From a virus, in IMG/VR virus record IMGVR_UViG_3300027759_000073, positions 1 to 64,000 of that record: a DNA stretch of 64,000 bases, one strand, 5' to 3'. Shown here one piece after another: positions 1,102-36,048 of the stretch (its first letter is position 1; each line of letters starts with the position of its first letter). Position numbers and translations under genes: made by a program. The notes under the pieces were generated by a model. That model searched no databases. It worked only from the letters and a program-made list of their open reading frames with translations, and had not been told where the DNA came from.

Positions 1102-1508
1102 CGTGCTTCCAACTCTGTGATATGTAATACAACTTTTGACTCTCCAGACACAATCGGCGCTTCAAATATTAGGCGCTGAACAATCTCTGGACCGTCTTCC
1201 CAAAGTATACCAGCATCAACAAGCCCGTCTATACAGGCTTTGGCGACTGGGAAGTGTCCGCCAGTGTCTGCCTTTCCTTTCCCGTTACGGCGGTGAGGAA
1301 TGAATCTAACCTCAATTGCTCGTAGGCGTTTTGGAATCTTTTTAGCAGTGGCAACTGCCGCTGCGGCTTCGCGCCACTCTTTAACTAGTTTTGCTCGTTG
1401 GTAGTGATGAAGGCTTCGTTCTTTATTGAGAGTCCACATTGTTTCGCCATAAATCTCGATGACGAATGTTTCTAATTTCGGGGGCTCTTTACTTTTCTTT
1501 GCTGGCAT
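1098..1508 (-). CDS. RusA-like Holliday junction resolvase
   Basis: D..G....K..IDGLVDAGIL.ED pattern; typical size and position in a replication block. Confidence 0.7.
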   Translation of the reverse strand: MPAKKSKEPPKLETFVIEIYGETMWTLNKERSLHHYQRAKLVKEWREAAAAVATAKKIPKRLRAIEVRFIPHRRNGKGKADTGGHFPVAKACIDGLVDAGILWEDGPEIVQRLIFEAPIVSGESKVVLHITELEAR

Positions 1509-2202
1509 AAATCCCTACAAAATTAAGGTTCTGCCAGAATGGCTGAACGACGGAAAACCCTGCACTTTTCAGCATCCTAATATTTTCTGAGGCCCTAACT
1601 GGAACAAGAACATTTTGAAGAGACAAGCGTTTTGCCTCAACCTGTTCTTCGGAATAACCATTATCCTTTTTCATTTGGTGATAGACGCTGACTAGATGGT
1701 CCTGTCCACCTGCTGATTCTCCTAGAACTTTTTCCACAAGAATAAAGCACCCATTTGGAGTAAGCGCATCATGAACCTGTTTTAAAATATCTTGGCGGTG
1801 CTCAATTGGAATGAATTGCAAAGTAAGAATTGACAAGATTGAGTCATACCTAAGTCTCTGCATTTCTGCATCTGCGATGTTTCCATGAACAATCGTTACT
1901 CGCTCATCGTCTGCAAATCGTGTTCTTGCTTTGCTTACCATTGCCGTAGAAGAATCAATGCCAACATAGTTCACATACATCGATGAACCAAGGTCTTTGA
2001 TTAATTTTGCAATCATTTCTCCATGCGAACAACCCAAGTCAAGAATATGTCCACCATTTGTGATGATTGGAGAAATCATTTTTATTACGGTGTCGCGCAT
2101 GTTTTCATATCCAGGGATTGAGCGACCGAGCATGTCGTCAAAGACATTTGCTACATCCTCATTGAATGACCATTCTTTTCCTGGAATAATTTCATCTCTC
2201 AT
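1489..2202 (-). CDS. cmoA: CmoA-like carboxy-S-adenosylmethionine synthase
   Basis: CmoA-type N-terminus WSFNEDVANVFDDMLGRSIPGY, DLGCS motif I, LTLQF, and a C-terminal lid EQVEAKRLSLQNVL...AGF...NF that keeps the KR (Arg199-equivalent). Confidence 0.8.
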   Translation of the reverse strand: MRDEIIPGKEWSFNEDVANVFDDMLGRSIPGYENMRDTVIKMISPIITNGGHILDLGCSHGEMIAKLIKDLGSSMYVNYVGIDSSTAMVSKARTRFADDERVTIVHGNIADAEMQRLRYDSILSILTLQFIPIEHRQDILKQVHDALTPNGCFILVEKVLGESAGGQDHLVSVYHQMKKDNGYSEEQVEAKRLSLQNVLVPVRASENIRMLKSAGFSVVQPFWQNLNFVGIYASKEK

Positions 2203-3746
2203 AGCGTGATTCCTAGTCTCTTGGAGAATGCTTCCTTTGCTTCTTCAGCCATCCCTAAACGCAATCCACCAGGGTGCGGTAGGTCAAACTCAAACTCAAT
2301 CGCTGCCTTTAGTTCTTCTGGACTTATTGTTTTAGGGTTCGACCCAACCGCCTGAACAAGGCCGTTTTTTGCCGTTAAAAAGGTGTCAACGGTTTTGAAA
2401 CCGTGCTGAACTAGTTCTTTGAACTCTGTCTGGGTGTGATACTTCTGCACTTTTGGCTTTGCAGCAATGTCTGAAACAATAATTCTTGGCTCGTAGTCAA
2501 GAGGGAATCCACCGCTTGATGTGTCATGTCCCTTCTTTATGTCTCCGCGAGCGTGATTGTGCCACCTATCGGACTCTGTGCAAATCGCTGCTGTGTGGAG
2601 TTTTGTATGGGGTGAGCACAATGCAGCAACAAGTTTTATGACATGTATTCGGTCTTGCAGAAATGGAATGCTGTTAAAAACGCTTGCAATAAAGATTGAA
2701 TCAAACTTTGTTCCTTCAGCAACTCGCTTCAAGAACTTTCTAGCCAACTCTCTTGCGCCTTCAGTGTCAATTGTTTCGTTATCTTTTGCCAAGAAGAACG
2801 GCTCGAACGGCGTGCAGTCAACGCCCAGTCTGTTAAGAATGTCTGTCTTGTCGCAAAGACCAGCCCCAAAGTCAATTACGGTAGTTCCGTAATAACCCTT
2901 CCAGAGTTCAACATGCTTCGGGTCATCAAGGTGGAATGCTCCGTTTCGATTACCAGACGGTACGAAGTGACGCAAGAAATCTTCCAAGAATGTTGGAGTA
3001 AGTATTTCTACCCTTTGGTTTTTTCGCCTAAAGGAGTTATGGCGTAGAAGGTCTGCGTAGCGTTCCTGAATATCAAAGTCCATTGATAGAAGATTGAGCA
3101 TGGCTGTCACCGCTTCTTCAATCTCTGATGGCACGGTGACTACGCTGATAAAATCGTTTCCTTCTTGCGCGGCAAATGTAAGACGCGCGCGACCATTCAG
3201 AACTTTGAAATCTGGAGTGCAAATAATTGGCATTGGCGGAAGACCATGCGACTTGATTTGACCAGCCATTACAATGGCATGCTGTTCCATCCAGCGCTCA
3301 TTTTTGGTCATTAGGCGTAATACCGACTGGGGCTTCATCTTCATGACTGGGTACCAGTCTGGGGAATCTACCTCAATGTCTGGGAGTAAATTGATTTTAT
3401 TAATCATTTCATCCATTGAAAGAAGGGCTTCCTTCATATCTGTGGACGACTGGTTCTTGTAAAGGTCGTTTGTCGCGCGATTGTAGAGCACATTTATTCC
3501 CATACGACGCTCTACGGGCATTTGGGGTGTCCTAACCACAGGAACGGTCTTTGCTCCCATCCTGGAGGCCACTAGGTGCCTTTGGTGGCCACTGAGAATC
3601 TCTCCGTTTATATCGGCATAGATTGGCAGAAGCCAGCCAAATTTACGCAGGGACAACTCAACCAGATTTAGGCGCTCTTCGTCGGCCTTTCGGGGGTTAT
3701 AGGCAGAGGGACGAAGGTCCTCAATTGGGGTCAGGACTGGCTTCAT
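2199..3746 (-). CDS. ParB/sulfiredoxin-like domains (one canonical, one divergent) fused to a class I SAM-dependent methyltransferase-like domain
   Basis: YNPRK...LPI...ILSGHQR; second unit MPIIC...VLNGRAR; C-terminal VIDFGAG...FEPF...FDSIFIASVFNSIP...DR...QKYHTQTEF. Confidence 0.75.
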   Translation of the reverse strand: MKPVLTPIEDLRPSAYNPRKADEERLNLVELSLRKFGWLLPIYADINGEILSGHQRHLVASRMGAKTVPVVRTPQMPVERRMGINVLYNRATNDLYKNQSSTDMKEALLSMDEMINKINLLPDIEVDSPDWYPVMKMKPQSVLRLMTKNERWMEQHAIVMAGQIKSHGLPPMPIICTPDFKVLNGRARLTFAAQEGNDFISVVTVPSEIEEAVTAMLNLLSMDFDIQERYADLLRHNSFRRKNQRVEILTPTFLEDFLRHFVPSGNRNGAFHLDDPKHVELWKGYYGTTVIDFGAGLCDKTDILNRLGVDCTPFEPFFLAKDNETIDTEGARELARKFLKRVAEGTKFDSIFIASVFNSIPFLQDRIHVIKLVAALCSPHTKLHTAAICTESDRWHNHARGDIKKGHDTSSGGFPLDYEPRIIVSDIAAKPKVQKYHTQTEFKELVQHGFKTVDTFLTAKNGLVQAVGSNPKTISPEELKAAIEFEFDLPHPGGLRLGMAEEAKEAFSKRLGITL

Positions 3747-5062
3747 TATTCTGTTCTACGAGCGCTCTTACGCTTGGAACGACGCTGGCGTGTACTCACC
3801 CAGGAATCGCCCTGGATATTAAGCATCTCCATCATTCCACCGCAAACTTCTTCAAACGAAAATCCATGAGCCTTAAACATCTCTTCTTCCCAAGCGTCAA
3901 AGTAGGAGCGTTCAAACTTAATCTCCCACTTACCAATGTTGGCGGTGACATTTCGTGCCTTGTCTTCGTCAGTTGACTTTCCTTTTTCTTCTTTGATGCC
4001 CCATCCAGCAACATCGCTAATCAAATCATCAACATCATCTCCGCTATATCCAGTTCCATCAAATGAGGACATAGAGCGAAGCATCTCTGCGAGTTCGACA
4101 TGGTCATAGGTTGCAAGGTCGGCAGTTTTATTGTCCACAAGAACAATCTTTGCTGCGGCTGCTTCATCAAGGTCAACGAATGTTACGGCTATTTCTTTCC
4201 AGCCCAACATTTTTGCAGCCTTCCATGTGTGGTTTCCAACAAGGATTGAGTTGTCTAACTTATTGACAACAATTGGTCTGAATTGTCCATTCTCTTTTAG
4301 AGATTCGGCAATTACTCCAATATCACCCTGACGAGCATTCATTGGATATGGAAAAACACTATTGATGTCCACATTGGTTGTCTCTGTAATAACAGATTTC
4401 ATACCAGACTTAGCAACTGTTTTTTTCTTTATTGTTGCTTTTCGAGGGCGAGGAGCGATTGCTTTTGCATCTAGCAAATTTAGGCGGCGGCGTAACTCCT
4501 GAAGAATAGAGTCATTGTCTTTATAAGAGGTCTCAAAATCTTTTGCCCAATCTGCATAGATGTCATCATCTACAAGTACGCGGTACGAGCCAACGCAGAT
4601 ACGAATACCGTCTCCGACTTTTCCTGTTCGCTCTCCATCTGGTGCAGTGAATTCTCCAACTCCGCTCATAAGTGCTTGCAGTTGGTCAATATCTACAGTT
4701 GTGAATCCAGTTCCTTCTAGGTCTGGAAGGCTTGAAAGAAGTTCAAGTAGTTTTGAATCGTCATAAGCCGATGCGTCAGATGTACGGTTATCCGCAAGAA
4801 CAATCTTGCGCGCCTCATGCTCATCAACATCAACCCAAGAAACTGCAATTTGCGTCCAACCAAGGCTTCTTGCTGCACGCCATGTGTGATTGCCAGCGAG
4901 GATTGAATTGTCTTTACGGTTAACCACAATCGGCTTATATTGACCGTTTACTTCCAGGGATTTAGCAATAGCGTCAACATCGCCGCGGCGTGGATTCTGG
5001 TGATATCCCTTCAGAATTGAGATATCTACTACTTCTGTATCTACTTTAATTTGTTCTGACAT
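3746..5062 (-). CDS. tandem ParB-N/Srx domain protein
   Basis: Internal duplication: NPRRGD/NARQGD...SL..NGQ.[KR]PIVVN..DNSIL.GNHTW.AA..LGW...KIVL.DN[RK]T occurs twice. Confidence 0.85.
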   Translation of the reverse strand: MSEQIKVDTEVVDISILKGYHQNPRRGDVDAIAKSLEVNGQYKPIVVNRKDNSILAGNHTWRAARSLGWTQIAVSWVDVDEHEARKIVLADNRTSDASAYDDSKLLELLSSLPDLEGTGFTTVDIDQLQALMSGVGEFTAPDGERTGKVGDGIRICVGSYRVLVDDDIYADWAKDFETSYKDNDSILQELRRRLNLLDAKAIAPRPRKATIKKKTVAKSGMKSVITETTNVDINSVFPYPMNARQGDIGVIAESLKENGQFRPIVVNKLDNSILVGNHTWKAAKMLGWKEIAVTFVDLDEAAAAKIVLVDNKTADLATYDHVELAEMLRSMSSFDGTGYSGDDVDDLISDVAGWGIKEEKGKSTDEDKARNVTANIGKWEIKFERSYFDAWEEEMFKAHGFSFEEVCGGMMEMLNIQGDSWVSTRQRRSKRKSARRTE

Positions 5063-5098
5063 GACATCCTCTGCACAATGGTATAGAGGAAGTATAGC

Positions 5099-5888: not shown

Positions 5889-6584
5889 TTATGCTCCTCG
5901 TTGTTTTCTTGCTTCTTTAATTGCGTCCCAACCTGCTGGTACAGCCTCATTGGTTACATCGTCTTGCGAAAGAGATGACCAGTGATTCACCAGTGCTGGT
6001 GGAGTCAGGACAAGTCCCTTATATCGCTTCCTGTAGCGTTCTGCACGCAAGTAAATCTCATCAGCGTTTGCTTGGCTCTCTTTCAGCAACTTGCAACAGC
6101 CGCCGTATTTGCTTCTTTCGGACTGGTTCAAAGTCGTTTGGTCAATACCACAAACATCCATTACAGCATTCCAGATTGGGTCTTCTGGTCGTTCTTTCTT
6201 GACTGCTGGGCTTACTTTCTTTTTTGCGGGCGCTTTTTTTACAGCAACAGGAAGAGACTCAACAACTTGAATATCTTCGTCATCGTCGTCATCGATTTTA
6301 ATATTCATCGGGTTATCAGGCCATTCATCCTGAATCAAGACTGTAAAAAGACTGCTTTGGTTGTGGCGTAGTTGTCTTTTTAACTCGCCAATCTCAATCA
6401 GTTTCTTGACGATTCTCTTTACTGTTCGTTTATCAAGACCAGTCTTGTGAGCGATATGACCAACTGATGGGAATGCGTTAGTGCCGTCTTCCCATGCGTT
6501 ATCTGCAATTGCGAGCAGGACTAACTTGTCATTCCCAGTTGCTTTAGATTTTTTCCATACTCTCGTGGTGCAGTATACGCTCAT
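5889..6584 (-). CDS. phage replication initiator (N-terminal winged HTH)
   Basis: KLVLLAIADNA...AFPSVGHIAHKTGLDKRTVKRIVKKLIEIG is the usual replisome-organizer wHTH; acidic/basic linker; C-terminal TPPALVNHWS. Confidence 0.8.
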   Translation of the reverse strand: MSVYCTTRVWKKSKATGNDKLVLLAIADNAWEDGTNAFPSVGHIAHKTGLDKRTVKRIVKKLIEIGELKRQLRHNQSSLFTVLIQDEWPDNPMNIKIDDDDDEDIQVVESLPVAVKKAPAKKKVSPAVKKERPEDPIWNAVMDVCGIDQTTLNQSERSKYGGCCKLLKESQANADEIYLRAERYRKRYKGLVLTPPALVNHWSSLSQDDVTNEAVPAGWDAIKEARKQRGA

Positions 6585-23367: not shown

Positions 23368-25494
23368 CTACTTAACGCGCGCACGCGCACGCGCACGGCG
23401 TTGTCTTTTAGCAGCATTTTTTCTATCTGGGTCAGGTACATCACCGCCACCGCCAGAGTTGCCTCCAGAAGGGGCTCCAGAGCCTCCAGAAGGGCCCGTA
23501 GAGCCTCCAGAAGGCGCAGATGCACCAGCAGCCCCAACTGCTGCTACAGCGGCTCCTGCAGCAACAAGCGTCCTTCTATCCCCAACATTGATTGAGGAGC
23601 CCAGGGCAACATATGTGTCAAACACTCCATCAAAGACATTGATTTCCTCTTCAAACGATTCCTTTACTTCCGCAGGGGCATCAACAAGAGCCTCCGCAAT
23701 CGCTGCACCGTCTTCTGGTGAAACATTGTCAACAACAATTGCATCAAAAACTTCTGTCGCCTGTGACGCATCAATGCTTTCCAGGACCTTTGCGCTAGTT
23801 GCCAACTCGGTTGCTTGCTCGCCATCAATGCCGCCATCTTGTCCGATAATCAAATCAACAACTGCTGAAACCTGGTCGTTGCTGATACTTGCGTTTTCGA
23901 GGACATTAACAACTTCCGCAAATTTTTCCTCGTCTAGTTCTGTGCTTAAAACAGCATCGAATGTTCCGAGCAAAACCTCATCTGAAACTTTTTCGTCAAA
24001 GATTGCATTGATAAGTGTGCTGAATTCTTCGGCGCTAAGAGGAGCCTCAAGGATTGATTCTGCCAACGCGACAGTATCTTCAGCAGAAATGTCTCCGTCA
24101 AAGACGGCATCAAACACCGCAGCAAGTTCCTCGGTAGATAAATCAGCAGAAAGCAGGTTGTCAACAACGGCGACCATCTGCTCCTGTGATGCAGACTCGC
24201 TAAACACTGCATCCATAACTTCCTGAAGTTGCTCTAATGGAATATCCGCACCAACAACATCAAGAAGAATCGCGGATGCTTCTTCCGCAGATGTATTATT
24301 ATCTAAAGTTACATTGTCAATAATTGCGTCAAGAACTTCTGTATCCAAAGGCTGAGAATCATCCAACTGGTCAAAGTCGGGGATGGTCACGGTAGTCTCT
24401 TCTGATGGTTCAGTTACTGTTATTTCCGTTTCTGGCTCTGAAGGTAGTATTTCATTCAGCATCTCTGGCAATGTCTCTACTGTTGCTATTTCTTCAGGCA
24501 GCGTCTCCTCTGTGGCTGGCGTGGTGTCTTCTGGGATTATGGGCTCTGGCTCAGGCTCTACGGGGACGACTACAACCACTGGCTGTGTGGTCGTTGTCGG
24601 CAATTCCGTCGTTGATGTTGTTGAACTACTTGTAGTTGTAGTAGTCGATGTTGACTGTGGAACAGTCGTAGTAGTCGTAGTAGTCGTAGTTGTTGTGGAT
24701 GTTGTTGAAGTTGTAGTTGTGACTGGGGTTGCAGAAGCAGTGTAAGTTTCAATCATTGACGAATACACATGTAGAGAGTCATTGTCAGCGCGAACCCTAA
24801 ACTGATAGGCAACACCATTGGTCAAGTTCCCTATAGTTGCGGATGTGTTATTGGATGCGATTGCAAAAGATGACTGCCAGTTGTTTGAACTGAAGAACAC
24901 TGCGTAGCGTTCAACTTCGGCGTAACCAGAACCACCTTCTGGGGCATCCCAGGTAAGAAATACGCTCTCATTTCCTGCGACCGCCTGAAGGTTTGTTGGG
25001 GTTCGCATGCTCAACGGTGCAAGTGTCGTAGTTGTTGTTGACGCAATAGTCGTAGTTGTGCTTGTTGATGTAGTAGTACTTGAGGTCGTAGTAGTTGATG
25101 TCGTCGTAGTTGAAGGTGCATTTGATGGTGCAATATTTACATCCACTACATATGAAGTTCCGTACCAGCGATTTGGGTCTCCACAGCAAACGCCAGTGCG
25201 CAGGCGGTAAGTCCCAGCGCCTAGGTCTCTTGTAATGTATGAATCAAGACCATATTGGGAGTCATCATTTGCAGCAAGTAATTGATTATTTGAGTCATAC
25301 AACCACAGCATTGAGTCAATTTGGTATTGCCAAGCGTATGTACGAACAGTAAACACTTGCGCTTCTTCCAGTGTAAAGTAATAATCGTTAGCGCCAGTCG
25401 TAGTAAAACTATCTGCTTTTGCTGATGAAATTGGGCCGAACAATGCCAAAAGAAGCGCAGGGATAACTATCCAGAAGCCTTTACGCAGTCTCAT
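23368..25494 (-). CDS. exported, membrane-anchored mucin-like protein (PPC-like domain, Thr tracts, FN3, acidic helical repeats)
   Basis: Signal peptide ending AKA-D; DSMLWLYD...LAANDD...DSYI...GTYRL; poly-Thr linkers; FN3 (LTWDAP...YQFRVRA); C-terminal hydrophobic stretch and Arg-rich tail. Confidence 0.75.
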   Translation of the reverse strand: MRLRKGFWIVIPALLLALFGPISSAKADSFTTTGANDYYFTLEEAQVFTVRTYAWQYQIDSMLWLYDSNNQLLAANDDSQYGLDSYITRDLGAGTYRLRTGVCCGDPNRWYGTSYVVDVNIAPSNAPSTTTTSTTTTSSTTTSTSTTTTIASTTTTTLAPLSMRTPTNLQAVAGNESVFLTWDAPEGGSGYAEVERYAVFFSSNNWQSSFAIASNNTSATIGNLTNGVAYQFRVRADNDSLHVYSSMIETYTASATPVTTTTSTTSTTTTTTTTTTTVPQSTSTTTTTSSSTTSTTELPTTTTQPVVVVVPVEPEPEPIIPEDTTPATEETLPEEIATVETLPEMLNEILPSEPETEITVTEPSEETTVTIPDFDQLDDSQPLDTEVLDAIIDNVTLDNNTSAEEASAILLDVVGADIPLEQLQEVMDAVFSESASQEQMVAVVDNLLSADLSTEELAAVFDAVFDGDISAEDTVALAESILEAPLSAEEFSTLINAIFDEKVSDEVLLGTFDAVLSTELDEEKFAEVVNVLENASISNDQVSAVVDLIIGQDGGIDGEQATELATSAKVLESIDASQATEVFDAIVVDNVSPEDGAAIAEALVDAPAEVKESFEEEINVFDGVFDTYVALGSSINVGDRRTLVAAGAAVAAVGAAGASAPSGGSTGPSGGSGAPSGGNSGGGGDVPDPDRKNAAKRQRRARARARVK

Positions 25495-25542
25495 ACCCGC
25501 TATACAATAAAACTATTTTATAAGATAGTTCTTATAGCCTGT

Positions 25543-26790
25543 CTAAATCTGCCTATCGGCGATGTTCCTGTTTTCTACTGGGACCAAAACCCCATGATGG
25601 CGTGCCTGGATATCCTTGCGTACCCATGTCATTCCGTATGTTGAATCTAGGTTTTGAGTACCTTCTCTGCGCTTTAGTCGTTCTGCCATTGACTGGAAGG
25701 TTGGGTCATCGCTTAGATTTAGGTATGAGTTATGCGACCACGGAAGGTCATAGAAGGCTGGTGCATTTACCAGAAGCGCTCCAGCAGTAGTCCAATGCTC
25801 TTCAATTCTTGGGTCTTCGCAGACAACTGGACCAGACAGGGCATACGATGGAACATCCGCCCCAACAAGTGGTCTATCGACTTCAAGCATCTTTTCAATA
25901 ATATTTGCGTCCATTGATATGTCTGAATCGACATAGAGAATCGCTTGATAGTTAACAACTCCGTGATTCAATTCCGTGCAGTCTTCGCCCCAATGATGCC
26001 CGCTCGTGACACGGACTCGTTGGGCAAATTCACGGATTAGGTTGCGCCCAGTTTCAATGCGAATCCACCTGTTTCCAGAAGTAACTTGGGCGTGCATATC
26101 GTTAATTGAGTATGTCCAGTAATCTCCGTTGACTTCCTTGAGTGCATCAATCACTTCCTTGAATGGCTCAAGGCCACGGTTGTCAAGTTCAAATGCAGAG
26201 AACCATTTAACATTTGGAAACTTGCGCATGATTTCTGCTCTATCAGCCATCCAGTTCAGATGCTCTCTTGCATCGCATTTCCATCCGACAAGCGGAGTAG
26301 CGATAACAAAATGCATCTGGTAATCAACTTCTCTTAGAAATGGCATCTTTATCTTCTTTATGTAGTCGGAGCAAACACCTGCGTAGTGAGCGAGGTTAAG
26401 AGTTTTCACATCAGAATGAGACTCTGGCATAACCATGACACATTTATTTGATGCAAGTGGTTTCCCAGGAAAAGCCCAGACAAAACTGTTGCTAGTTATT
26501 GTGTAGTCGTCCGTATTGTGGAAGAAACAATGCAGTCCCGAGTCTTTGCAGATTCCAAGTGCCACATCGTTTTTGCAATGAATCCAGAGTTTCTGTGAGC
26601 GTTCTTGTAGCCAGCCAATCTCGATTTTGTGCTGTGGTCCATCATGCCCAAGAAATAGACCGTCTTGGTTTGCCCAAACATCTACCTCAACATCAAATCC
26701 CTGACTTATTGCAGCATCAATGTATTCAGGTGTGTTTTCAAGTTCTGGTTTAGGACCTTGAAGGTTCCCACGGTGGGATATGTAAATCAT
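25543..26790 (-). CDS. GDPD/PLC-like phosphodiesterase domain fused to a GT-A-like domain
   Basis: ISHRGN...ENTP...GFDVEVDVW...WIHCKN in the first ~150 aa; GRNLIREFA...ILYVDSD...SDD in the C-half. Confidence 0.65.
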   Translation of the reverse strand: MIYISHRGNLQGPKPELENTPEYIDAAISQGFDVEVDVWANQDGLFLGHDGPQHKIEIGWLQERSQKLWIHCKNDVALGICKDSGLHCFFHNTDDYTITSNSFVWAFPGKPLASNKCVMVMPESHSDVKTLNLAHYAGVCSDYIKKIKMPFLREVDYQMHFVIATPLVGWKCDAREHLNWMADRAEIMRKFPNVKWFSAFELDNRGLEPFKEVIDALKEVNGDYWTYSINDMHAQVTSGNRWIRIETGRNLIREFAQRVRVTSGHHWGEDCTELNHGVVNYQAILYVDSDISMDANIIEKMLEVDRPLVGADVPSYALSGPVVCEDPRIEEHWTTAGALLVNAPAFYDLPWSHNSYLNLSDDPTFQSMAERLKRREGTQNLDSTYGMTWVRKDIQARHHGVLVPVENRNIADRQI

Positions 26791-27494
26791 TTTTCAACCT
26801 GAACCCAAATCCAGTTTTTGTGGTTATCGCCAGGACCAGTTTCCCTAATATCAAATTTAAAGTTTTTGAAACCTATTTTTCCAACTAGGTCGTCAAATAC
26901 TGTTTGCTCATCTTGGATACTTACATCTGAGTGACCGTTCGTGCTGCCAGCATCATAATTATTGTCGTAGTAGCCAGCAGTAGGTATCTCGCCCTTCCCG
27001 CCATAACCCATTTGGAAACATAACTTCCCGCCTGGCTTGAGAACCCTGTAGATATCCTTCAAGATATCAAACCTAATTTTATGCACGCAAATATGCTGGA
27101 AGCAGATTACGGCAAAAACCACATCGTAAACATCGTCGGCAATAGCAGAGAGATTGTCTCCGCTAGTTACATATAGGTTTGGCTCGGCAATGTTATTTGC
27201 CTTGACATTGAGACGCGCCCTTTCAATATTCACATGAGAAATATCTATCCCGTCAACCCGAGCAAAACGATTTGAGAACTTGACCAGGTTTCTTCCAGGT
27301 CCACATCCGTACTCAAGTGCTACAAGGCCATTTGTGTCAAAGTCCTTGAACAAGAAATTGTCATAGTCTGACCAGTTGTTGTGAGCATCGTATGAGCCAA
27401 CTACTGGGTCCCTGAAATCAAGTGACCACTTTGCTGCATATTCGTCGTAATACGAATTCTGCATTCCCAAGTAATCGTCTTTGTCCTTGCTCAT
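26787..27494 (-). CDS. class I SAM-dependent methyltransferase
   Basis: LEYGCGPGRN, GIDIS, YDVVFAVICFQH, RVLKPGG. Confidence 0.85.
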   Translation of the reverse strand: MSKDKDDYLGMQNSYYDEYAAKWSLDFRDPVVGSYDAHNNWSDYDNFLFKDFDTNGLVALEYGCGPGRNLVKFSNRFARVDGIDISHVNIERARLNVKANNIAEPNLYVTSGDNLSAIADDVYDVVFAVICFQHICVHKIRFDILKDIYRVLKPGGKLCFQMGYGGKGEIPTAGYYDNNYDAGSTNGHSDVSIQDEQTVFDDLVGKIGFKNFKFDIRETGPGDNHKNWIWVQVEK

Positions 27495-28864
27495 TTGTTG
27501 TTCTCCAAGTAGTAGTTCAGGTCTTCAGGTGTTCCGATTCCCCACATCTTGGGAACTTCCTTAATCCTAATCTTTTTATCATCCTGAATCGCTTCATTGA
27601 ATACAGGGCAAACATAGAACTCATTATTTGTTCTAATGTCTTTTTCAATCATCTGGTTTGCATATTTGACATAGTCAGAACCGTGCTTCCAGTAATAGAT
27701 TCCAACGGTGGCATTATCTGAGATTGGGTTCTTCTCTGCCACTTCTGACACGAAGCCATCATCTCCAAGTTTTGCATAGGACCATTTTGGATGGGTTGCC
27801 TTGAATGTCAGGATTCCGCCGTCAATCTCGTCAGCACCAAACGCATAGAGGCATTCATTGCTATCCCATTCAACGACTTGGTCGGAGTTTGCCATTAGCA
27901 ATGGCGCGTCAGTATCGATGAGGTGCGAAGCCAGCAGGGTTGTGCAGGCGGCCCCTTCTGTCATTCCATCAACCAAGACAATGTCGCATCCTGGCTTTAT
28001 GAGGTTGAGAACCTGCTTTAGGTTGTATTTCTCGTAGTGGTCTTTTTGAACCAAGAAAATAAAGTGCGCGTCAACATTGAGGTTGTCAACAACTACCTGA
28101 ATCATTGGCTTGCCATTTACCTCGATAAGCGGCTTTGGGAATGTGTAACCAGCCTGAGCAAAGCGTGAGCCAGCGCCTGCCATTGGTATCAAAACATTCA
28201 TCTTTTCGTTCCTCCAAGCGACTGGCTTTTTGCCACGGGTTTCAATTTCATCAACGAACTTCATCAAACTATTTTTATTAAGGTCGTCGGCATTCTTGAT
28301 TGCAAAAAGATTGGCGCCAGAACTAAGTGCGCCTTCCCTTCCAATATGTGAATCCTCAACAATAATGGTGTTTGCTGGACTTGAATCTAAAGAGACTATG
28401 CACTGCCAGTACATCTCTGGGTGCGGCTTGTGGTGCTTTACATCCTCGTTGCTCATGATGTAACTGACATATTTGAGCACACCAATTGCATCAAGCGCCG
28501 TGATTACAGTATCCCTAATCGCGTTACTTGCCACAGCAATCTTCCATCCGCGCTCCTTAAGGGTCTGCATGATGTCAATAGCGACATAGTTCTTTGGAAA
28601 CTCGGACAAGATTTTTAGCGTTGCTTCTTGCTTGTCTTCCCAAACTTGCTGGTGATTCGATTCTGGAAGTCCCTTGTTTTGACTCAACATCTTTAACTTT
28701 GTAGTTGTGCCAAGTCCGTCGTACATTGACAGATGCTCATCGCGGGAAATCACATACTTTGGGTCAATCCTGCTGAGGGCGATATTTAGGGAGTCATAAT
28801 GCACATCCCTAGATTCAATTAGAACACCATCAAGGTCAAAGATTACAAGGAAGTTACTTTTCAT
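27491..28864 (-). CDS. HAD phosphatase fused to a BcbE-like sugar nucleotidyltransferase
   Basis: FDLDGVL, SN, KPHP, VEDS..G HAD motifs; then LIPMAGAGSRF...PKPLIEV...TEGAACT...NNEFYV...GTPEDL; start re-called at MKSNF. Confidence 0.85.
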   Translation of the reverse strand: MKSNFLVIFDLDGVLIESRDVHYDSLNIALSRIDPKYVISRDEHLSMYDGLGTTTKLKMLSQNKGLPESNHQQVWEDKQEATLKILSEFPKNYVAIDIMQTLKERGWKIAVASNAIRDTVITALDAIGVLKYVSYIMSNEDVKHHKPHPEMYWQCIVSLDSSPANTIIVEDSHIGREGALSSGANLFAIKNADDLNKNSLMKFVDEIETRGKKPVAWRNEKMNVLIPMAGAGSRFAQAGYTFPKPLIEVNGKPMIQVVVDNLNVDAHFIFLVQKDHYEKYNLKQVLNLIKPGCDIVLVDGMTEGAACTTLLASHLIDTDAPLLMANSDQVVEWDSNECLYAFGADEIDGGILTFKATHPKWSYAKLGDDGFVSEVAEKNPISDNATVGIYYWKHGSDYVKYANQMIEKDIRTNNEFYVCPVFNEAIQDDKKIRIKEVPKMWGIGTPEDLNYYLENNK

Positions 28865-29510
28865 GTGGGTTTGGTCCCGCATGTCTGTGCCACTTATTGT
28901 GACGAACAATACTCTTACCATTGCACTTCATCAGATATTTATCCCTCACGCGCATTGACCACTCTACATCTTCTTCTTCGTTCCATCCGCGAGACTCGTC
29001 CAGCGGCTCTTCCAGCATCACATGCTTTTTTAGCATGAAGAACCCGCCAGAGATATACATATATTGCGTTTGAGTCCAGTCGTTATAGTCAAGCGACCAG
29101 GCCCTACCGTGTCCAGGCTTGTCCCATAATGACCAATCCATTGGATTGCGTGCTCCATTGATTAGGTACTGGGGGCATGAGCAGATTTCCCAATCTGTCC
29201 CGAACTTCTTAAACTCTTCATACCAAGCACTATCAAAAATGTGGTAATCATGCATTAACACAATGTTTTCGTACTTCGCGTTCTGAACAAGAATGTTCTT
29301 TTTGCGGGTAATCCATCGCGGCTTTATTGACTCGTCAAAGTCAATCTTTACGATGTCATCGCCTTCAATCCCAGACGAATCTCCGCCGCCTACAAAAAGC
29401 ATTTCGTACTCTGGCACTCCAAGACTTCGGATGTTTTCAACAATTTCAGAAAGTCTATTTTTATCTTCGTAAACAGTGATTATCCCAAAGGTCCACGGAA
29501 TGTCATGCAT
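28854..29510 (-). CDS. GT-A fold (GT2-like) glycosyltransferase
   Basis: RKKN...AKYENIVLMHD, ISGGFF, WNEEEDVEWS.R. Confidence 0.7.
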   Translation of the reverse strand: MHDIPWTFGIITVYEDKNRLSEIVENIRSLGVPEYEMLFVGGGDSSGIEGDDIVKIDFDESIKPRWITRKKNILVQNAKYENIVLMHDYHIFDSAWYEEFKKFGTDWEICSCPQYLINGARNPMDWSLWDKPGHGRAWSLDYNDWTQTQYMYISGGFFMLKKHVMLEEPLDESRGWNEEEDVEWSMRVRDKYLMKCNGKSIVRHNKWHRHAGPNPHEK

Positions 29511-30603
29511 TCTCCGCACCTTCTAGTATTGAGCGATAAACATGATTCCATTCAGGTCCACGCTTTTCCATAGTGAATAGGTTCTTTACATTTGCAAGAT
29601 TCTCTTCAACTTCGTCTTTGCGCATTGATGGGTCCATAAGTTCGTTTAAGTGGTAATTCCACTCACTCTTGTTTCGCGCCACTCTTCCAACTCCATAACT
29701 TGCCATAAATTCATACTCGGGGGACCAGGATGAAATAAACGGAATGCCAGCGGCGACATACTCAAGTCCCTTGATAAAAGACTTTGCATGATTGAATTGA
29801 ACATCGTTCAATGGAACAATTCCAATATCAATTGGTGCAAAGAGTTTTGGGTAATCTAGAATTGGGACCAGTGGGAGCGTCGTAGTGGAATCCGCACTAA
29901 TCCCAAGTTGGTCGGCGGCGTGTGCTGCATTTGTCTGCAAGTGCCCAGAATGATGAAACTTTAGACCGTTGCTATTTATAAATGACCCCACAGAATCTGC
30001 CACCGATTCAAGGTCACTTGAGCGCCAAGGGGTAGCCCCAACCCAGCCAATTGTTGGCTTATCAACAAAGTTGACTTTGTTTCTCTTCCACCTATCAAGG
30101 TCAATGCCGTTTCGCACCATGAAGACATTGTCATTAAATTTTGAATAGTAATCGCCGAGGAATGGGGTTGACACCACAATGGCGTCGGCAAGAGCGATTA
30201 TTTTGTTATAGATATCTCTGTTATTCTCTGGGCTTTTCTCTGGGTCTGTAACATCGTAAGCACGGTTTGTCTTTTCTAGACCGTCATGCCAGTCGTCAAT
30301 ATCCACGACAATAATCTGCCCCAGTGCCTTTGCTTTGTGCATCTCTTCCAGAACTCTCTGATGCATAATGAGTTTAAAAACAATTATATCCCAACCGTGG
30401 ATTGCCTTTTCGTCCTCAACCATTAATCCGAATCCATGCGCTTCGTTAAATCCAGGGAAACCCATACCAGTACCCCACTGGTGCTTCTTTAGTTCCCTTG
30501 ATGGAAGAAGGCAGCGATACCATCCGCAACCATTGGGTTGAAGCGGCTTTGTTCCCCAAGACCAGTCAAATGTCAAAAAAGAGATATTTGGGTTCTTTTC
30601 CAT
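29503..30603 (-). CDS. GT-B fold (GT4-like) glycosyltransferase
   Basis: GCGWYRC..P, DIDD, VSTPFL, RNGID, DIGIVPL...FNHAKSFIKGLEY. Confidence 0.8.
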   Translation of the reverse strand: MEKNPNISFLTFDWSWGTKPLQPNGCGWYRCLLPSRELKKHQWGTGMGFPGFNEAHGFGLMVEDEKAIHGWDIIVFKLIMHQRVLEEMHKAKALGQIIVVDIDDWHDGLEKTNRAYDVTDPEKSPENNRDIYNKIIALADAIVVSTPFLGDYYSKFNDNVFMVRNGIDLDRWKRNKVNFVDKPTIGWVGATPWRSSDLESVADSVGSFINSNGLKFHHSGHLQTNAAHAADQLGISADSTTTLPLVPILDYPKLFAPIDIGIVPLNDVQFNHAKSFIKGLEYVAAGIPFISSWSPEYEFMASYGVGRVARNKSEWNYHLNELMDPSMRKDEVEENLANVKNLFTMEKRGPEWNHVYRSILEGAENA

Positions 30604-30689
30604 TTTTCTTCCTGTATTGTCTTCCAAGGTATGCGGCGCGATTCAACGCTACATGATAATAACACACCCGATTGGTTAACGAAAAACCA

Positions 30690-31157
30690 CTAAGAGATAT
30701 CAGTGTATTTTATAGAGTCTTTTTTTCTTTTGCTTTTATTGTAGGCAGAAATGAACTCTGGTGTACCTATTACATTTTGTCCGCCATCAACTTCATATAG
30801 CAGATTATATGAATTTTCTAGGGCAAAAAGTATAATCCAACTTAGTGTTGAAGCATTCATTGGTTTGCCCGACTCAAGTACCGACATATACGAAATATCA
30901 TCTAATCCTGGGTATGCAATTATCACATTAGATAATTCTGGTTTTAGCCACTCTGGAATGCGTGGGTCTATTAGCCATCCACACTTAAATGCTCTGCACA
31001 TCTCTGGTCTTTCTTCATGGATGGTGCAACCGACACCCTTGTCGACATAGTGGCAAGGTCTCCCATTATAGAAAACATGACCGTTTATCTCTCCAGAAAA
31101 GTACCCTTCACAGCACCTTGTGCATGTTCCGCATGACCTATTCAACTGGCTCTCCAA
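30690..31157 (-). CDS. YkgJ/UPF0153-like CxxCxxCC cysteine-cluster protein
   Basis: CGTCTRCC...PC...GCTIHEERPEMCRAFKC. Confidence 0.75.
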   Translation of the reverse strand: MESQLNRSCGTCTRCCEGYFSGEINGHVFYNGRPCHYVDKGVGCTIHEERPEMCRAFKCGWLIDPRIPEWLKPELSNVIIAYPGLDDISYMSVLESGKPMNASTLSWIILFALENSYNLLYEVDGGQNVIGTPEFISAYNKSKRKKDSIKYTDIS

Positions 31158-31181
31158 TTTTAAATATTTTTGGGTTATGCA

Positions 31182-31943
31182 TTATTCGGATTGCGTCTCA
31201 ACAATGTTATCTTTTATTTCGCGTAATATTTGATTCCGCAAACCCGAACGCCTAAATATCTCATACTTTTCCGTCAATTTTGAAAATCTTGGCAGTGGGT
31301 TCAACTGAACCAAGGAAAGCGCTATCGTGCTGAGTCTTTTTGTTACCTGATAACGATGTAGTCTTATCCTTTTATCAGTATGAAACTCAATATACATAAG
31401 TGGCTCATCCTGGTTTATTTGCAACTCATTAATCCCATCCCAAAGATTGAACTCGGCATTAAATGGTCTATACCATTTACCAATGTCAAAACGGCCAGGA
31501 ACTAGCGAGCCATATTTGCTGCTTTCAACATTGTGAAAGTACGGAGATGTCATGGATGCCATGACACTTTCATCTGAAAAAAGTAATAGCGAATACTCAA
31601 AATTTACAAGCATATTATTCTTTAAAGTTGGCTGATGCAAGACTGAACTTGGTGTCTGCAGTATTTCTGGAATATCGTAAAAAACTTTGTTATCAACATA
31701 TGTTGTATGATTTTTTACCATATTGTTAAAAACAAAAATATTCTTCATCTTGCTTGACACAGCAGGGCATTTAATGAATGTATCTCGCTGCTGATTACCA
31801 GCGTAGTTTTCCACACATTGGCTGTATAAAGAATTTGGTGATGGGTACAGGTGATTTAGGTCAAAGGCTAATGTTTGGTTCCAGTAAGGAGCCCAATATA
31901 TGTCAATATATTTACTGTCATCGTTTGTTTTGTATTCATACAT
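31182..31943 (-). CDS. conserved phage protein, distant paralog of 33090 and 39379 (DUF6065-like)
   Basis: KCPA, PGRFDIGKWYRP, DEPL.YIEF pattern. Confidence 0.5.
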   Translation of the reverse strand: MYEYKTNDDSKYIDIYWAPYWNQTLAFDLNHLYPSPNSLYSQCVENYAGNQQRDTFIKCPAVSSKMKNIFVFNNMVKNHTTYVDNKVFYDIPEILQTPSSVLHQPTLKNNMLVNFEYSLLLFSDESVMASMTSPYFHNVESSKYGSLVPGRFDIGKWYRPFNAEFNLWDGINELQINQDEPLMYIEFHTDKRIRLHRYQVTKRLSTIALSLVQLNPLPRFSKLTEKYEIFRRSGLRNQILREIKDNIVETQSE

Positions 31944-32673
31944 TTAAAATGTTATCCAGTTCCTCATTTGATACTTCTCGTGGGATTATCTCTGTCTGCA
32001 TTGTATTGGGTGATTCATGGTCTTGGGTGAATTCATCACAGTGAATAAATGAACTAATTATCCATTTATCCCCAGAAATCGGAACAAGCCCAGCGTGCTG
32101 ATGCGTCCACGATGCTGGGAATACCGCGATTCTTCCAGACACCGCATTTATTGATACATCATGGTCGATAAACCCAGTTCCGCCACCCTTTTCTACTGTA
32201 TTTAAATATATAATTACTCCAAGAACGCGCTTATTTACTGGGTGCTCCGTCCAAGGAGAGCCATCATGGTGGATTCTGTAAAACCCATTATTTTTCACAT
32301 AATGCTGAAGTCTAAATCCAGTGTTATATAAAACAGGTGACTGTTGCAAGACTGGGAATTCTTCAATATATAAAGCCATTGCTGATGACAATGCTTCTTG
32401 GATTTCAAAATAGTTTTTATTGAGCGACAAAGAATAAATGCCCATTGACTCATATGTTCCTGGATGAAAGTGGAAATCCATCGACGATTTTATATTTGGG
32501 TTATACCCACCAATTGTCGGCCCGTTAGAAAAAAACTGACCGTAATTTTTTATGCATTCTTGGATTATCTCATCACAGCATTGTTTTGTTATCAGGTCAT
32601 CAATAAAGGCAATATGCCCAGATTTTTCTCCTGCGTATTTAAGCATATGAGCCAATCTCTGATTCTTCCCCAT
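31936..32673 (-). CDS. 2OG-Fe(II) oxygenase (prolyl-4-hydroxylase-like)
   Basis: HHD...RVLGVIIYLN...GGGT.F...FPASWTHQH...KWIIS. Confidence 0.9.
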   Translation of the reverse strand: MGKNQRLAHMLKYAGEKSGHIAFIDDLITKQCCDEIIQECIKNYGQFFSNGPTIGGYNPNIKSSMDFHFHPGTYESMGIYSLSLNKNYFEIQEALSSAMALYIEEFPVLQQSPVLYNTGFRLQHYVKNNGFYRIHHDGSPWTEHPVNKRVLGVIIYLNTVEKGGGTGFIDHDVSINAVSGRIAVFPASWTHQHAGLVPISGDKWIISSFIHCDEFTQDHESPNTMQTEIIPREVSNEELDNILNV

Positions 32674-33097
32674 TTGAAACTGAAAAATTTACCTCTGTAA
32701 TCTTTATGGACTCCAGAAATACAGAAATTGAATAGTATCCCTCTGACTCAAAAAATGCAGGTAGCGCGCAGTGATGCAGGTCGTGTTTAATTACATCCAT
32801 CTTGAATGTTTTTCTAATAAGAGCATTATCCATAGAAAGAAAAAAATCAAGTTTTGAGCAGTCTACGAAATCGTCATAGTAATTGAATGACATCGACCTG
32901 TTTGGTTTTATAACTGGTGGGAATGGCAAAAATCCAGAGTATATGGGTATTAAAATAACGCTAACTTTATCTCTATCAAATTCCATTCCAGTCGTTCGCT
33001 CGGAGTCGCCAATCTGAATTGGCAAAGACCACTCCTTTGCAATTAATTCAGCCTCTTCAATATTTTCAACTGACGGACAAAATACAACCCTATCCAT
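32639..33097 (-). CDS. hypothetical protein
   Basis: 152-aa ORF with GGAGG RBS, overlapping both neighbours. Confidence 0.6.
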   Translation of the reverse strand: MDRVVFCPSVENIEEAELIAKEWSLPIQIGDSERTTGMEFDRDKVSVILIPIYSGFLPFPPVIKPNRSMSFNYYDDFVDCSKLDFFLSMDNALIRKTFKMDVIKHDLHHCALPAFFESEGYYSISVFLESIKITEVNFSVSNGEESEIGSYA

Positions 33098-33947
33098 TGT
33101 CGCCTCCTATTTTTTTATCTACCCTGTTTTGCTCATGCTTATATGCGCCTTCCCACGAGACTCGGCGATGAATATTGTCAAAACCAAGGTTATTCAGCAA
33201 TTTGTAAATCCCAGAATCGCCTTTAATCAATTCAGAATTTTTTATTACATCTGCTCTCTTGAAGGGTATGGCGTGGAACATTGGTGTTCCTTCCGCGATT
33301 GAGAATTCAGAAGTGCTTGTAATATTTAGAACGATATTGCAGTGGTGGTAGTAATCAGTGTTTACAACACCAGCCATTACATGGTAGTTATCATTTGGCT
33401 CCCACTGTGGATGTATAAAAAGTGTGGAGTACCCAGGGGCAGTCTTAAAAAGCCACGGGTTAGTCAGTTTCAAGTATGATGACTCCTCGCGACCTTTAAT
33501 CGAGGCTACTGGGCACTTTCCAGCCTGTTCCGCTGGAAATTGGTTTCCCATAAGTTCGTTATGAGACATTATTTGAGCAAACTCTTCATTGCTTAAGAAT
33601 TCAGCACCGTATAAATCTGGGTCAAGAATGTCATACTTTGCGTCCCAGTTTTTATGAAGTTTATTTAGTGGTGTCCTTACATCCAACTTTGCCCACAGCG
33701 GAACAGTGTATCCGCCACGAATATAGTCGCTGAGTCCGAAGCACCTCTTTAGACCGCTAGTTCCGCCAGCGATTTCCTTATACCAATCTGGGGTTTTTTT
33801 CCTATTCTCAAATACCTCAACCTTTGGATGCCAAAGTGTATTTGATACAGGAACTGCTAGTAGTTCGTATGGTTTTGGTACTGGTATTTCTGAAAAAATA
33901 TCAGCCTTTACTACACTACCTTTTTTTGAAAATAGACGCATGGTCAA
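33090..33947 (-). CDS. conserved phage protein (DUF6065-like)
   Basis: PDWYK...KRC...GY.VP.W...PW..KTAPGYSTLFIHP...GVVNTD...GTP...IPFKR; same motifs as 39379-40107. Confidence 0.6.
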   Translation of the reverse strand: MTMRLFSKKGSVVKADIFSEIPVPKPYELLAVPVSNTLWHPKVEVFENRKKTPDWYKEIAGGTSGLKRCFGLSDYIRGGYTVPLWAKLDVRTPLNKLHKNWDAKYDILDPDLYGAEFLSNEEFAQIMSHNELMGNQFPAEQAGKCPVASIKGREESSYLKLTNPWLFKTAPGYSTLFIHPQWEPNDNYHVMAGVVNTDYYHHCNIVLNITSTSEFSIAEGTPMFHAIPFKRADVIKNSELIKGDSGIYKLLNNLGFDNIHRRVSWEGAYKHEQNRVDKKIGGDNG

Positions 33948-35385
33948 CCAATGTTTCCTTTAGTGCATTTGTTTTTAATTCTGCAAATATACGGGCTGCC
34001 TTTTCTCTTGAGCCATAGGCATTTAATTCCCTTGTTGCTATCTCCCTAGATACTAGCCCTTGTCCTTGAGCAACATGCCAAAAATGAGCACTATGAAATA
34101 CTTCATAGCCGAATATTGGTGTGTCATACGACTGTGGGCAGCGCTCTTTCCATAAATCTATCAATGTGCTTAATAATTCTGGCTTTTCTGCATTTTGTTG
34201 TTCCCTCCACATTTCTGTGTCAGACCTGTCAGAAATATAGTGCATTGCGACCATCGTTACTAGGTTCTCCATAAGCAGCGCTGTTTGCTTATTGTGCTGT
34301 TCAATAACCGCCTTTGAACCAGGGACATATGCCCCTATAACCGATACCAGCATCCTGGCCTGCTGAATAGATGTGGCAATTGAGGTTGCTTCTAATGGCT
34401 CAAGGAATGATGAGGATAGACCAACGGCAGCACAATTGTATGCCATTGCTGTCTTGTAGTATCCAGATTTAAATTTAATTATTCTTGCTGGCTGAATATC
34501 CCTGCCATGTGCGTCAGATATTTCCTTTACGGCCTGCTCGTCCGAGCAGAAATCTGAAGCAAAAACATACCCATTTCCCCTTCGCTCTTGAGTTGGTATC
34601 TCCCACATCCAGCCATTTGGCATTGCCCTTGCCCTTGTGTATGGCCTGATTTGACCAGACTCATCAGACTCTGTCTGAAATACTGCAGCAGAATCGCATG
34701 GCAAAAATTTTCTATATGAGTAAAAGTCGGAGTCGTTGTCAACAAGTTTGCCCATTAGGGCACGGTGAAATCCAGATGAGTCAATGAAGAAATCTGCTGC
34801 TACTTCAGTTTTATTCTGCAATATGACTGACTCGATATTCCCATTCTCTGAGTTGCGAGTTATATCCTCAACTTCTCCATCTATAAATTTGATTCCTCTT
34901 GATTGTGATACATCTTTCAAGTATGTATTGAGTTTAAAAGTATCAAAGTGGAACTGATTCACAGCATTATGTGGACTTTGCTTATTCAACGGAATTTTAT
35001 TATTGTACAAATGACTTATCATTGCATTTGTTAGCAACATATTGTTTTCTATAGCAAATGCGTAGTTCCCAGCAAAGTAGTGCGGACCTACCTCTCCACC
35101 ACTAACGCTGTGGAAATAATCTGGGGTATGTGTTGTCCATCCCTCAAACCTTATGCCGTATTTATGCGTTGCTGCACAACGGTCAACCATCTCATCAACT
35201 GATATTCCGTGTTTATCTTGGAAAAAAATACGCCAGTGCTCAGTTGAGCCTTCGCCAACTCCGATAATCCCAATTTTCTCCGAGGACACAACAGTAATTT
35301 CGTGGTATGGAAGGTGCCCTTTTAAAATTATTGCAGAGACAAGTCCAGATGTTCCTGAACCAACAATGCAAATGTGCTTTTTCAT
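33916..35385 (-). CDS. flavin-dependent halogenase (tryptophan halogenase/PrnA family)
   Basis: GSGTSG FAD motif, GVGEGS, catalytic Lys in ATHKYGIRF, GWMWEIP (WxWxIP), FLEPLEATSI; start re-called at MKKHIC. Confidence 0.9.
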   Translation of the reverse strand: MKKHICIVGSGTSGLVSAIILKGHLPYHEITVVSSEKIGIIGVGEGSTEHWRIFFQDKHGISVDEMVDRCAATHKYGIRFEGWTTHTPDYFHSVSGGEVGPHYFAGNYAFAIENNMLLTNAMISHLYNNKIPLNKQSPHNAVNQFHFDTFKLNTYLKDVSQSRGIKFIDGEVEDITRNSENGNIESVILQNKTEVAADFFIDSSGFHRALMGKLVDNDSDFYSYRKFLPCDSAAVFQTESDESGQIRPYTRARAMPNGWMWEIPTQERRGNGYVFASDFCSDEQAVKEISDAHGRDIQPARIIKFKSGYYKTAMAYNCAAVGLSSSFLEPLEATSIATSIQQARMLVSVIGAYVPGSKAVIEQHNKQTALLMENLVTMVAMHYISDRSDTEMWREQQNAEKPELLSTLIDLWKERCPQSYDTPIFGYEVFHSAHFWHVAQGQGLVSREIATRELNAYGSREKAARIFAELKTNALKETLVDHASIFKKR

Positions 35386-35386
35386 T

Positions 35387-35992: not shown

Positions 35993-35998
35993 AAGAAT

Positions 35999-36026
35999 AT
36001 AGTATCACTAATCTCTGCAATGTCAA
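35999..36026 (-). promoter_or_regulatory. promoter of the oxygenase/halogenase cassette, probably leaderless
   Basis: TTGACA-16 nt-TACTAT with TGn extension, then 6 nt to the ATG at 35992; no Shine-Dalgarno. Confidence 0.65.
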
Positions 36027-36048
36027 TGATTAAATTATTAGAAATTTA

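Follow-up and report, generated by a model that had tools for sequence, protein, structure and literature searches.

Do phages carboxymethylate their DNA with a transferase other than CmoX? The question is raised by three adjoining genes, here called P0003, P0002 and P0001, in the virus record IMGVR_UViG_3300027759_000073 of IMG/VR, a linear record of 78,558 bp whose first 64 kb (the window) were analysed. In Synechococcus phage S-B43, the CmoA-CmoX-CmoY pathway yields 5-carboxymethylcytosine and its glycine amide (Yang et al., Nat Commun 2025, PMC12783734). In the same work, CmoX, a C5-methyltransferase homologue with an Arg350, was defined by an SPPC motif, ParBc proteins were encoded on many CmoX contigs, and no CmoA-linked N6-adenine or N4-cytosine carboxymethyltransferase candidates were found. 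An earlier note on the window, made from the letters alone, had proposed that the trio couples a CmoA-like carboxy-S-adenosylmethionine (carboxy-SAM) synthase to a carboxymethyltransferase of a different class. Judging from sequence and by analogy with the S-B43 pathway, we see an even chance that the trio is a carboxy-SAM-dependent DNA carboxymethylation system with a transferase other than CmoX. Its genes are as follows.

3746-5062, minus strand: P0003 (438 aa), tandem ParB/Srx protein, first gene of the trio (PF02195, TIGR00180, phrog_8071, phrog_723)
2199-3746, minus strand: P0002 (515 aa), ParB / ParB-like / transferase protein of family phrog_5475 (E 4.9e-99)
1489-2202, minus strand: P0001 (237 aa), CmoA-like protein, putative carboxy-SAM synthase (TIGR00740 164.3 bits; PDB 1im8/4gek)

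The three open reading frames (ORFs) have the boundaries that the earlier note gave them, and share the minus strand with almost all genes of the window. Its reading of the junctions was likewise correct: TAATG makes a 1-nt overlap at 3746 and ATGA a 4-nt overlap at 2199-2202, so the genes are translationally coupled. They lie between a replication-initiator O-like gene upstream (5889-6584) and a RusA-like resolvase gene downstream (1098-1508), the setting described for them before. The further claim that the trio has its own promoter held only in part, in that the proposed hexamer is present.

5091-5096, minus strand: TATACT hexamer, a weak possible -10 element, read in the sequence 28 nt before the P0003 ATG

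However, only 36 nt separate P0003 from the upstream gene, no -35 element is present and a consensus promoter scan made no call here; a separate trio promoter is therefore not established. No GenBank phage gave a nucleotide match to the trio region.

The identity of P0001 was investigated first by family and structure comparison. Its top family is TIGR00740 (CmoA; E 3.6e-48), to which residues 10-235 align over the full length (model positions 14-239), with the runner-up family at 53.6 bits. Matches to the CmoA/YecO crystal structures (PDB 1im8, E 1e-33; 4gek, E 1e-30) and to phrog_4752 (E 9e-71) agree with this assignment. All of the CmoA hallmarks listed in the earlier note, VFDDM..RSIPGY, DLGCS and AKR, are found in the protein. 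Cofactor contacts were mapped by alignment onto the contact list for E. coli CmoA, in which Arg199 forms a salt bridge to the extra carboxylate of the cofactor (PMC3663124). The equivalent of Arg199 is R192 (AKRLSLQNV in P0001, QKRSMLENV in CmoA), and six of the nine contacts are also retained (Tyr39, Asp62, Gly64, Ser66, Asp89 and Phe137); the others are altered, Asn90 to Ser, Asp117 to Asn and Asn132 to Ile. The earlier note had pointed out the Ile at the Asn132 position and had named Arg199 and Tyr39 as residues to compare. For calibration we used the CmoA of Synechococcus phage S-B05, a phage with the published CmoA / Asn-synthase / C5-methyltransferase trio; it is a stand-in, possibly a distant one, for the assayed S-B43 enzyme. 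The S-B05 protein scores 115.6 bits on TIGR00740, lower than P0001, and has K-E-K at the Arg199 column, and on the scores from this model P0001 is at least as CmoA-like as S-B05 CmoA. These comparisons support P0001 as specifically CmoA-like, and carboxy-SAM synthesis is predicted for it.

The proposed transferase, P0002, matches phrog_5475, a family of unassigned function, nearly end to end (residues 4-512 on profile positions 4-457 of 458). Three domains can be distinguished.

3447-3746, minus strand: P0002 ParB N-terminal-type domain 1, residues 1-100 (phrog_620, Noc/Spo0J structure matches)
3051-3365, minus strand: P0002 degenerate ParB-like domain 2, residues ~128-232 (hhalign, AlphaFold topology)
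2325-3056, minus strand: P0002 class-I SAM-dependent transferase domain, residues 231-474 (AlphaFold2, structure comparison, invariant columns)

An AlphaFold2 model of P0002, built with 93 homologues, has a mean pLDDT (predicted local distance difference test score) of 91.3 and a pTM (predicted template modelling score) of 0.88. In this predicted model residues 231-474 adopt a class-I SAM-methyltransferase fold, in keeping with the Rossmann SAM domain claimed earlier. Structure comparison with VIA-align placed METTL6 first (Z 12.7, root-mean-square deviation 3.5, 193 residues), and more than 160 chains reached Z >= 8; the further neighbours included a heterocyclic-toxin methyltransferase, ToxA, CcbJ, GNMT, Trm9 and generic N-, C- and O-methyltransferases. 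Foldseek returned ToxA, CcbJ and XrdM at E ~4e-5.

Several transferase motifs show no variation among the 93 sequences. These are DFGAG at 292-296 (motif I), FEP at 314-316 (E315 being the ribose-binding Glu), NSxPF..DR at 358-366 after beta4, YE at 418-419 and PKxQ at 431-434, followed by a nearly invariant K435; an invariant segment, RYADLLR.NSFRR, directly precedes the core. From this conservation we argue that the transferase is an active enzyme, and in the alignment and the model the domain does look active. Six basic residues within the domain or next to it that vary little or not at all, R235, R240, R241, R366, K432 and K435, are candidates for binding the carboxylate of the cofactor. 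The loop after beta4 reads NSIPF in P0002, with N358, S359, P361 and F362 invariant, and was considered as a degenerate NPPF amino-methyltransferase motif. This was rejected as evidence, because ordinary Methyltransf_11/25 proteins carry a similar hydrophobic loop at this place and DNA amino-methyltransferases are not what the structure comparison returned.

By sequence the transferase domain stands apart. No methyltransferase model of Pfam or NCBIfam recognises it, and the isolated C-terminal domain of three family members gave no NCBIfam match at E <= 10, the dnd-associated methyltransferase model included, in a search whose HMMER filters drop weak matches. Single-sequence and profile searches of the PDB with P0002 found only ParB/Noc proteins, plus a marginal match of the transferase part to UbiG (E 0.04). 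When the domain alone was searched against 1.84 billion cluster representatives, 329 hits (clusters at 50% identity) were obtained at E <= 1e-3, nearly all of them ~500 aa long with the domain in the same place. Since the hits nearly all share the architecture of P0002, the domain makes up a closed family that is not connected by sequence to any characterised methyltransferase.

The remainder of P0002 and the whole of P0003 supply ParB domains, two in each protein, which bears out the earlier count of four. P0003 matches PF02195 in two stretches (60.9 bits, cut-off 26.3), TIGR00180 (63.3 bits), phrog_8071 (E 1e-98) and phrog_723 (E 1e-94), and has a strongly basic C-terminal tail. Domain 1 of P0002 carries invariant YNPR and SGHQR motifs; it scores under the cut-off on PF02195 (20.5 bits), matches phrog_620 (E 1e-19), and is connected to Noc and Spo0J/ParB structures by profile search (E 2e-5) and to ParB/Noc by Foldseek. 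Domain 2 is degenerate, with NG.GRL in place of GHQR. It aligns with domain 1 in hhalign (residues 1-100 against 128-232, probability 95.9%, E 5.3e-9) and repeats the strand and helix order of domain 1 in the AlphaFold model.

Do these genes belong together? More than 120 full-length relatives of P0002 were found (42-95% identity), and relatives are encoded on 387 IMG/VR contigs. We fetched 80 of these viral loci (41-97% identity to P0002), and in nearly all that extended far enough a CmoA-like gene lies 0-2 kb downstream of the P0002 relative; TIGR00740 was the top family of every cassette partner tested. An independent set of species-representative bacterial genomes contained 132 P0002 relatives, in Alphaproteobacteria, Verrucomicrobiota, Cyanobacteria, Actinomycetota, Bacteroidota, Chloroflexota, Desulfovibrionaceae, Vibrio and Lachnospiraceae. 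At least 2.5 kb of downstream DNA was available for 68 of the genome loci; the CmoA-like gene is present in 66 of these and a further small gene in 61. The co-occurrence on which the earlier note had made its proposal depend was thus found, with the P0002-type transferase and the CmoA-like gene paired across distant phages at 42-95% identity. Orthologues of P0003 lie immediately upstream of the transferase in 31 of the 80 viral loci, and a single-domain ParB takes their place elsewhere.

The pairing is present in the complete genomes of three cultured phages. In Gordonia phage Evaa, gp1-gp5 are annotated as a ParB-like protein, a methyltransferase with a ParB-N-terminal-like domain, a hypothetical protein, a phosphatase and a methyltransferase, followed by the terminase; the other carriers are Pseudomonas phage SM1 (gp051-053) with relatives such as PaMx31, and Aeromonas phage HJ05 (gp1-3). 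The cultured-phage CmoA nearest to P0001 (42% identity) comes from the Erwinia jumbo phages, as in vB_EamM_Y3 (L165, 12641-15232), where it adjoins genes for an asparagine synthase and a 2-oxoglutarate (2OG)-Fe(II) oxygenase. From its gene content this neighbourhood looks like another carboxy-SAM hypermodification variant.

The cassette partners differ at the Arg199 column. Among 51 unique partner sequences, 32 have K-R, including the clade of the window, and 14 have K-E. The K-E subtype, seen in loci L022, L024, L027, L030, L031, L035, L043 and others, is shorter (~220 aa), reads AKELSLGGV at this column and has VREQLPWY replacing RSIPGY. The partners of SM1, HJ05 and Evaa also have no Arg at the column itself, with a basic residue one or two positions further on. 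When the transferase was scanned for residues that co-vary with a missing Arg199 in the partner, differences appeared only at H156/Y and L497/M, and neither change alters an acidic or basic residue.

This bears on a rival explanation, in which P0002 is an ordinary SAM methyltransferase acting on DNA or something else, while the CmoA-like protein drains SAM and so blunts host defences that depend on it, boosts cmo5U in host tRNA or is itself a plain methyltransferase. That no transferase residue follows the loss of Arg199 counts in its favour, its generic class-I fold would suit it, and depletion of SAM by a phage CmoA was raised as a possibility in PMC12783734. We nevertheless consider it unlikely, since so nearly obligate an adjacency (66 of 68), seen in very distant phages and in different host phyla, would be difficult to account for if the two genes did not serve one pathway. 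The pair also occurs in hosts such as Gordonia and Lachnospiraceae, and the partner is always of the CmoA family and never of another methyltransferase family.

If carboxy-SAM is made, which enzyme could accept it? No PF00145, PF08003 or PF01555 protein is encoded in the 78.5-kb record, and neither a [DNS]PP[YFWH] motif nor a PCQ plus ENV pair is present in any of its 97 ORFs, so that the earlier statement of no C5-methyltransferase, CmoB or amino-methyltransferase in the window holds for the record as a whole. The search was extended to 23 records carrying the cassette, among them the three cultured phages with complete genomes and a complete viral record that has terminal repeats. PF00145 is absent from 22 of them, SM1, Evaa and HJ05 among these. 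The sole exception (L029:6727-7722), 3 kb upstream of its cassette, is a C5-methyltransferase of the ordinary GGYPCQ/ENV type without SPPC, and so is not CmoX-like. In five carrier records tested there was neither a CmoB (PF08003, Methyltransf_9) nor an N6/N4 methyltransferase. On these sequence data the tight and ancient linkage of a CmoA-family gene with one particular transferase family is the same pattern that revealed CmoA-CmoX, here with no other acceptor candidate. An asparagine-synthetase-type ligase (PF00733) was likewise not found in the record itself, in SM1, in Evaa or in one viral record of 100% completeness. A weak PF00733 match (26 bits) is present in Aeromonas phage HJ05 (L083, 10737-11015), within a 438-aa ORF ~8 kb from the cassette, which may encode a CmoY-like amide ligase.

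Comparison of the loci revealed two features beyond those of the earlier note, namely a fourth conserved cassette gene and a usual adjacency to the terminase. The usual gene order is ParB (one or two domains), P0002-type protein, phrog_32036 (~160 aa), CmoA-like protein, small terminase, large terminase and portal. In most loci the cassette directly precedes both terminase genes, a position that would suit a packaging or partition accessory, in which ParB organises or marks DNA for the terminase and the transferase-like domain senses SAM or carboxy-SAM without catalysis. The cassette does not adjoin the terminase in the window, however, where it lies between replication genes and RusA; the transferase motifs of catalytic type do not vary among the 93 sequences; and a sensor needs no dedicated cofactor synthase. 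We therefore regard this explanation as very improbable.

The fourth gene, phrog_32036 (examples: L013:18497-18958, L023:11558-12043 and L024:12078-12497), was modelled as a capless HAD domain (pLDDT 92.6). Its best fold matches are polynucleotide 3'-phosphatase domains, T4 Pnkp at Z 14.9 and Pnkp1 at Z 14.4, with generic HAD proteins at 11.9 or below; its profile found nothing among PDB sequences, and this identity comes from the fold search only. Motif I is invariably D-x-N, not D-x-D, which suggests that the phosphatase chemistry is altered or lost. The gene is absent from the 78.5-kb record, where only a weak, unrelated N-terminal match was seen at 57.9-58.1 kb. In the nearest long relatives the HAD gene lies ~7 kb downstream of cmoA, and the same distance here would reach past the contig end.

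The Pnkp-like partner, together with the terminase adjacency elsewhere, fits an action on DNA around packaging. A nucleic-acid target is plausible because of the four ParB domains, the T4 Pnkp-like protein and published precedents: a phage ParB activates thymine dioxygenase specifically on double-stranded DNA (PMC13229309), and ParBc proteins are encoded on CmoX contigs (PMC12783734). Some of this evidence is shared by a third explanation, that the cassette carboxymethylates tRNA or other RNA, a packaging protein or a small molecule, with the ParB domains serving only as nucleotide-driven switches. A HAD protein like T4 Pnkp is also compatible with RNA repair or processing, ATP-binding ParB-SAM methyltransferase fusions are functionally diverse (PMC12704722), and the top structural neighbours include the tRNA enzymes METTL6 and Trm9 as well as small-molecule N-methyltransferases. 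Against a target other than DNA stand the four ParB domains plus the basic tail, and the position of the cassette amid replication and recombination genes here and beside the terminase elsewhere. Phage ParB-methyltransferase fusions are, moreover, generally linked to DNA modification, and the window contains no tRNA genes. On balance such a target appears quite improbable.

Several observations weigh against DNA carboxymethylation by the trio. P0001 scores below the curated NCBI equivalog cut-off of TIGR00740 (193.3 bits), and two of its altered contacts, Ile for Asn132 and Asn for Asp117, fall in the cofactor site; Asn132 of CmoA touches the cofactor through its main chain too. The structural neighbours of P0002 are generic small-molecule and tRNA methyltransferases, so that cofactor and substrate are not deducible from the fold, and neither a DNA methyltransferase nor CmoB is among the top ones (CmoB falls outside the top 50). 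About one third of the cassettes have a partner without Arg199, yet the charged columns of the transferase do not change along with this loss. Finally, the record is ~59% complete (CheckV), which leaves room for a partner enzyme outside the recovered DNA of this phage. The S-B05 calibration suggests that neither the equivalog cut-off nor strict Arg199 conservation is a sharp functional boundary, and Arg199 may be dispensable for carboxy-SAM synthesis. Partners with a variant Arg199 column would then either still supply the same cofactor, which is plausible given S-B05, or be part of a looser cofactor link.

With these points weighed, we propose the following pathway for carboxymethylation by the trio as the most economical explanation. 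P0001 would convert SAM and prephenate to carboxy-SAM, as its homology to CmoA predicts. The class-I domain of P0002 would then move the carboxymethyl group from carboxy-SAM to phage DNA after replication, a step suggested by gene linkage and fold. The target would not be cytosine C5 modified by the CmoX mechanism, since P0002 has no C5-methyltransferase fold and no catalytic Cys motif. By analogy with related systems, the fused ParB domains and P0003 would bind nucleotide and DNA, and may bring the enzyme to double-stranded DNA or activate it there, in the way that a phage ParB acts on thymine dioxygenase. The earlier note also allowed that the ParB/Srx domains might activate the carboxylate. 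The mark would presumably shield phage DNA from host nucleases. In its most specific form, the proposal is that phrog_5475 represents a second, structurally unrelated class of natural carboxy-SAM-dependent DNA carboxymethyltransferase, delivered by its fused ParB domains and a ParB partner and producing, in phages of many bacterial phyla, a non-C5 mark (on a base N, O or other position) that is perhaps processed further by the HAD protein; to this form we give a little under an even chance.

In principle, and as far as sequence can tell, the cassette resembles the published system in using phage carboxy-SAM for DNA modification, while the transferase class and the accessory genes differ. As in S-B43, a phage CmoA homologue adjoins a SAM-fold transferase, ParB-domain proteins are nearby and CmoB is absent; we presume that carboxy-SAM is made, that the carboxymethyl group goes to DNA and that restriction is evaded here as well. 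In contrast to CmoX, the transferase has no PF00145 domain and no SPPC/PCQ Cys, but a generic class-I fold with two ParB domains; and instead of an asparagine-synthetase-type ligase, which was not found here, most cassettes have the Pnkp-like HAD protein. Compared with the E. coli CmoA/CmoB pathway to tRNA cmo5U (PDB 4GEK, 4IWN, 1IM8), P0001 aligns over its full length and keeps Arg199, whereas its partner carries ParB domains and has no detectable similarity to CmoB. What the trio shares with phage ParB-methyltransferase fusions and ParB-activated enzymes (PMC12704722; PMC13229309) is a ParB-CTPase-fold domain that phages and prophages fuse to a DNA-modifying enzyme or encode next to one, together with a stand-alone ParB partner. 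The known fusions mostly involve an N6_N4 methyltransferase or Methyltransf_23, whereas here two ParB-type domains occur in one chain, the transferase domain has no Pfam or NCBIfam match, and the linkage to a CmoA-like gene is nearly obligate. Full-text literature searches gave no description of the P0002 family or of the cassette, and nothing relevant was found on DNA modification in PaMx31/SM1-type phages or on other phage carboxymethyltransferases.

Elsewhere in the window, an auxiliary enzyme cluster (23368-37320, minus strand) lies between the structural genes and a helicase gene, with a fall in GC content to 0.39-0.40 at 30-36 kb. It includes the following genes.

26787-27494, minus strand: Methyltransf_11/25 protein
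27491-28921, minus strand: beta-phosphoglucomutase-type HAD fused to a sugar-1-phosphate nucleotidylyltransferase
29503-30627, minus strand: TuaH-like glycosyltransferase
31936-32673, minus strand: 2OG-Fe(II) oxygenase
33916-35427, minus strand: tryptophan-halogenase-family flavoenzyme (PF04820, 329 bits)

The cluster may be a glycan or other modification pathway. A separate gene (41704-47055, minus strand) encodes a 1783-aa structural protein in which several repeated stretches match families of minor-tail and tail-fibre proteins (phrog_356, five stretches).

To our knowledge, CmoA-CmoX, reported in 2025, is the only natural DNA carboxymethylation system described, and its authors reported no further class of transferase tied to a phage CmoA. 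If the proposal for the trio is correct, a second class of transferase would point to a new DNA modification chemistry and provide a new tool to install a carboxylate handle on DNA. Nucleoside mass spectrometry could answer the question directly, as carriers that infect Pseudomonas aeruginosa, Gordonia terrae and Aeromonas hydrophila are in culture. Hundreds of phages and prophages have the cassette, with hosts among the Proteobacteria, Verrucomicrobiota, Cyanobacteria, Actinomycetota, Bacillota and other groups. A second transferase class would also be a natural and widespread example of how a generic class-I methyltransferase fold can be adapted to carboxy-SAM, and a further example of a DNA-modifying enzyme guided by ParB-fold domains.

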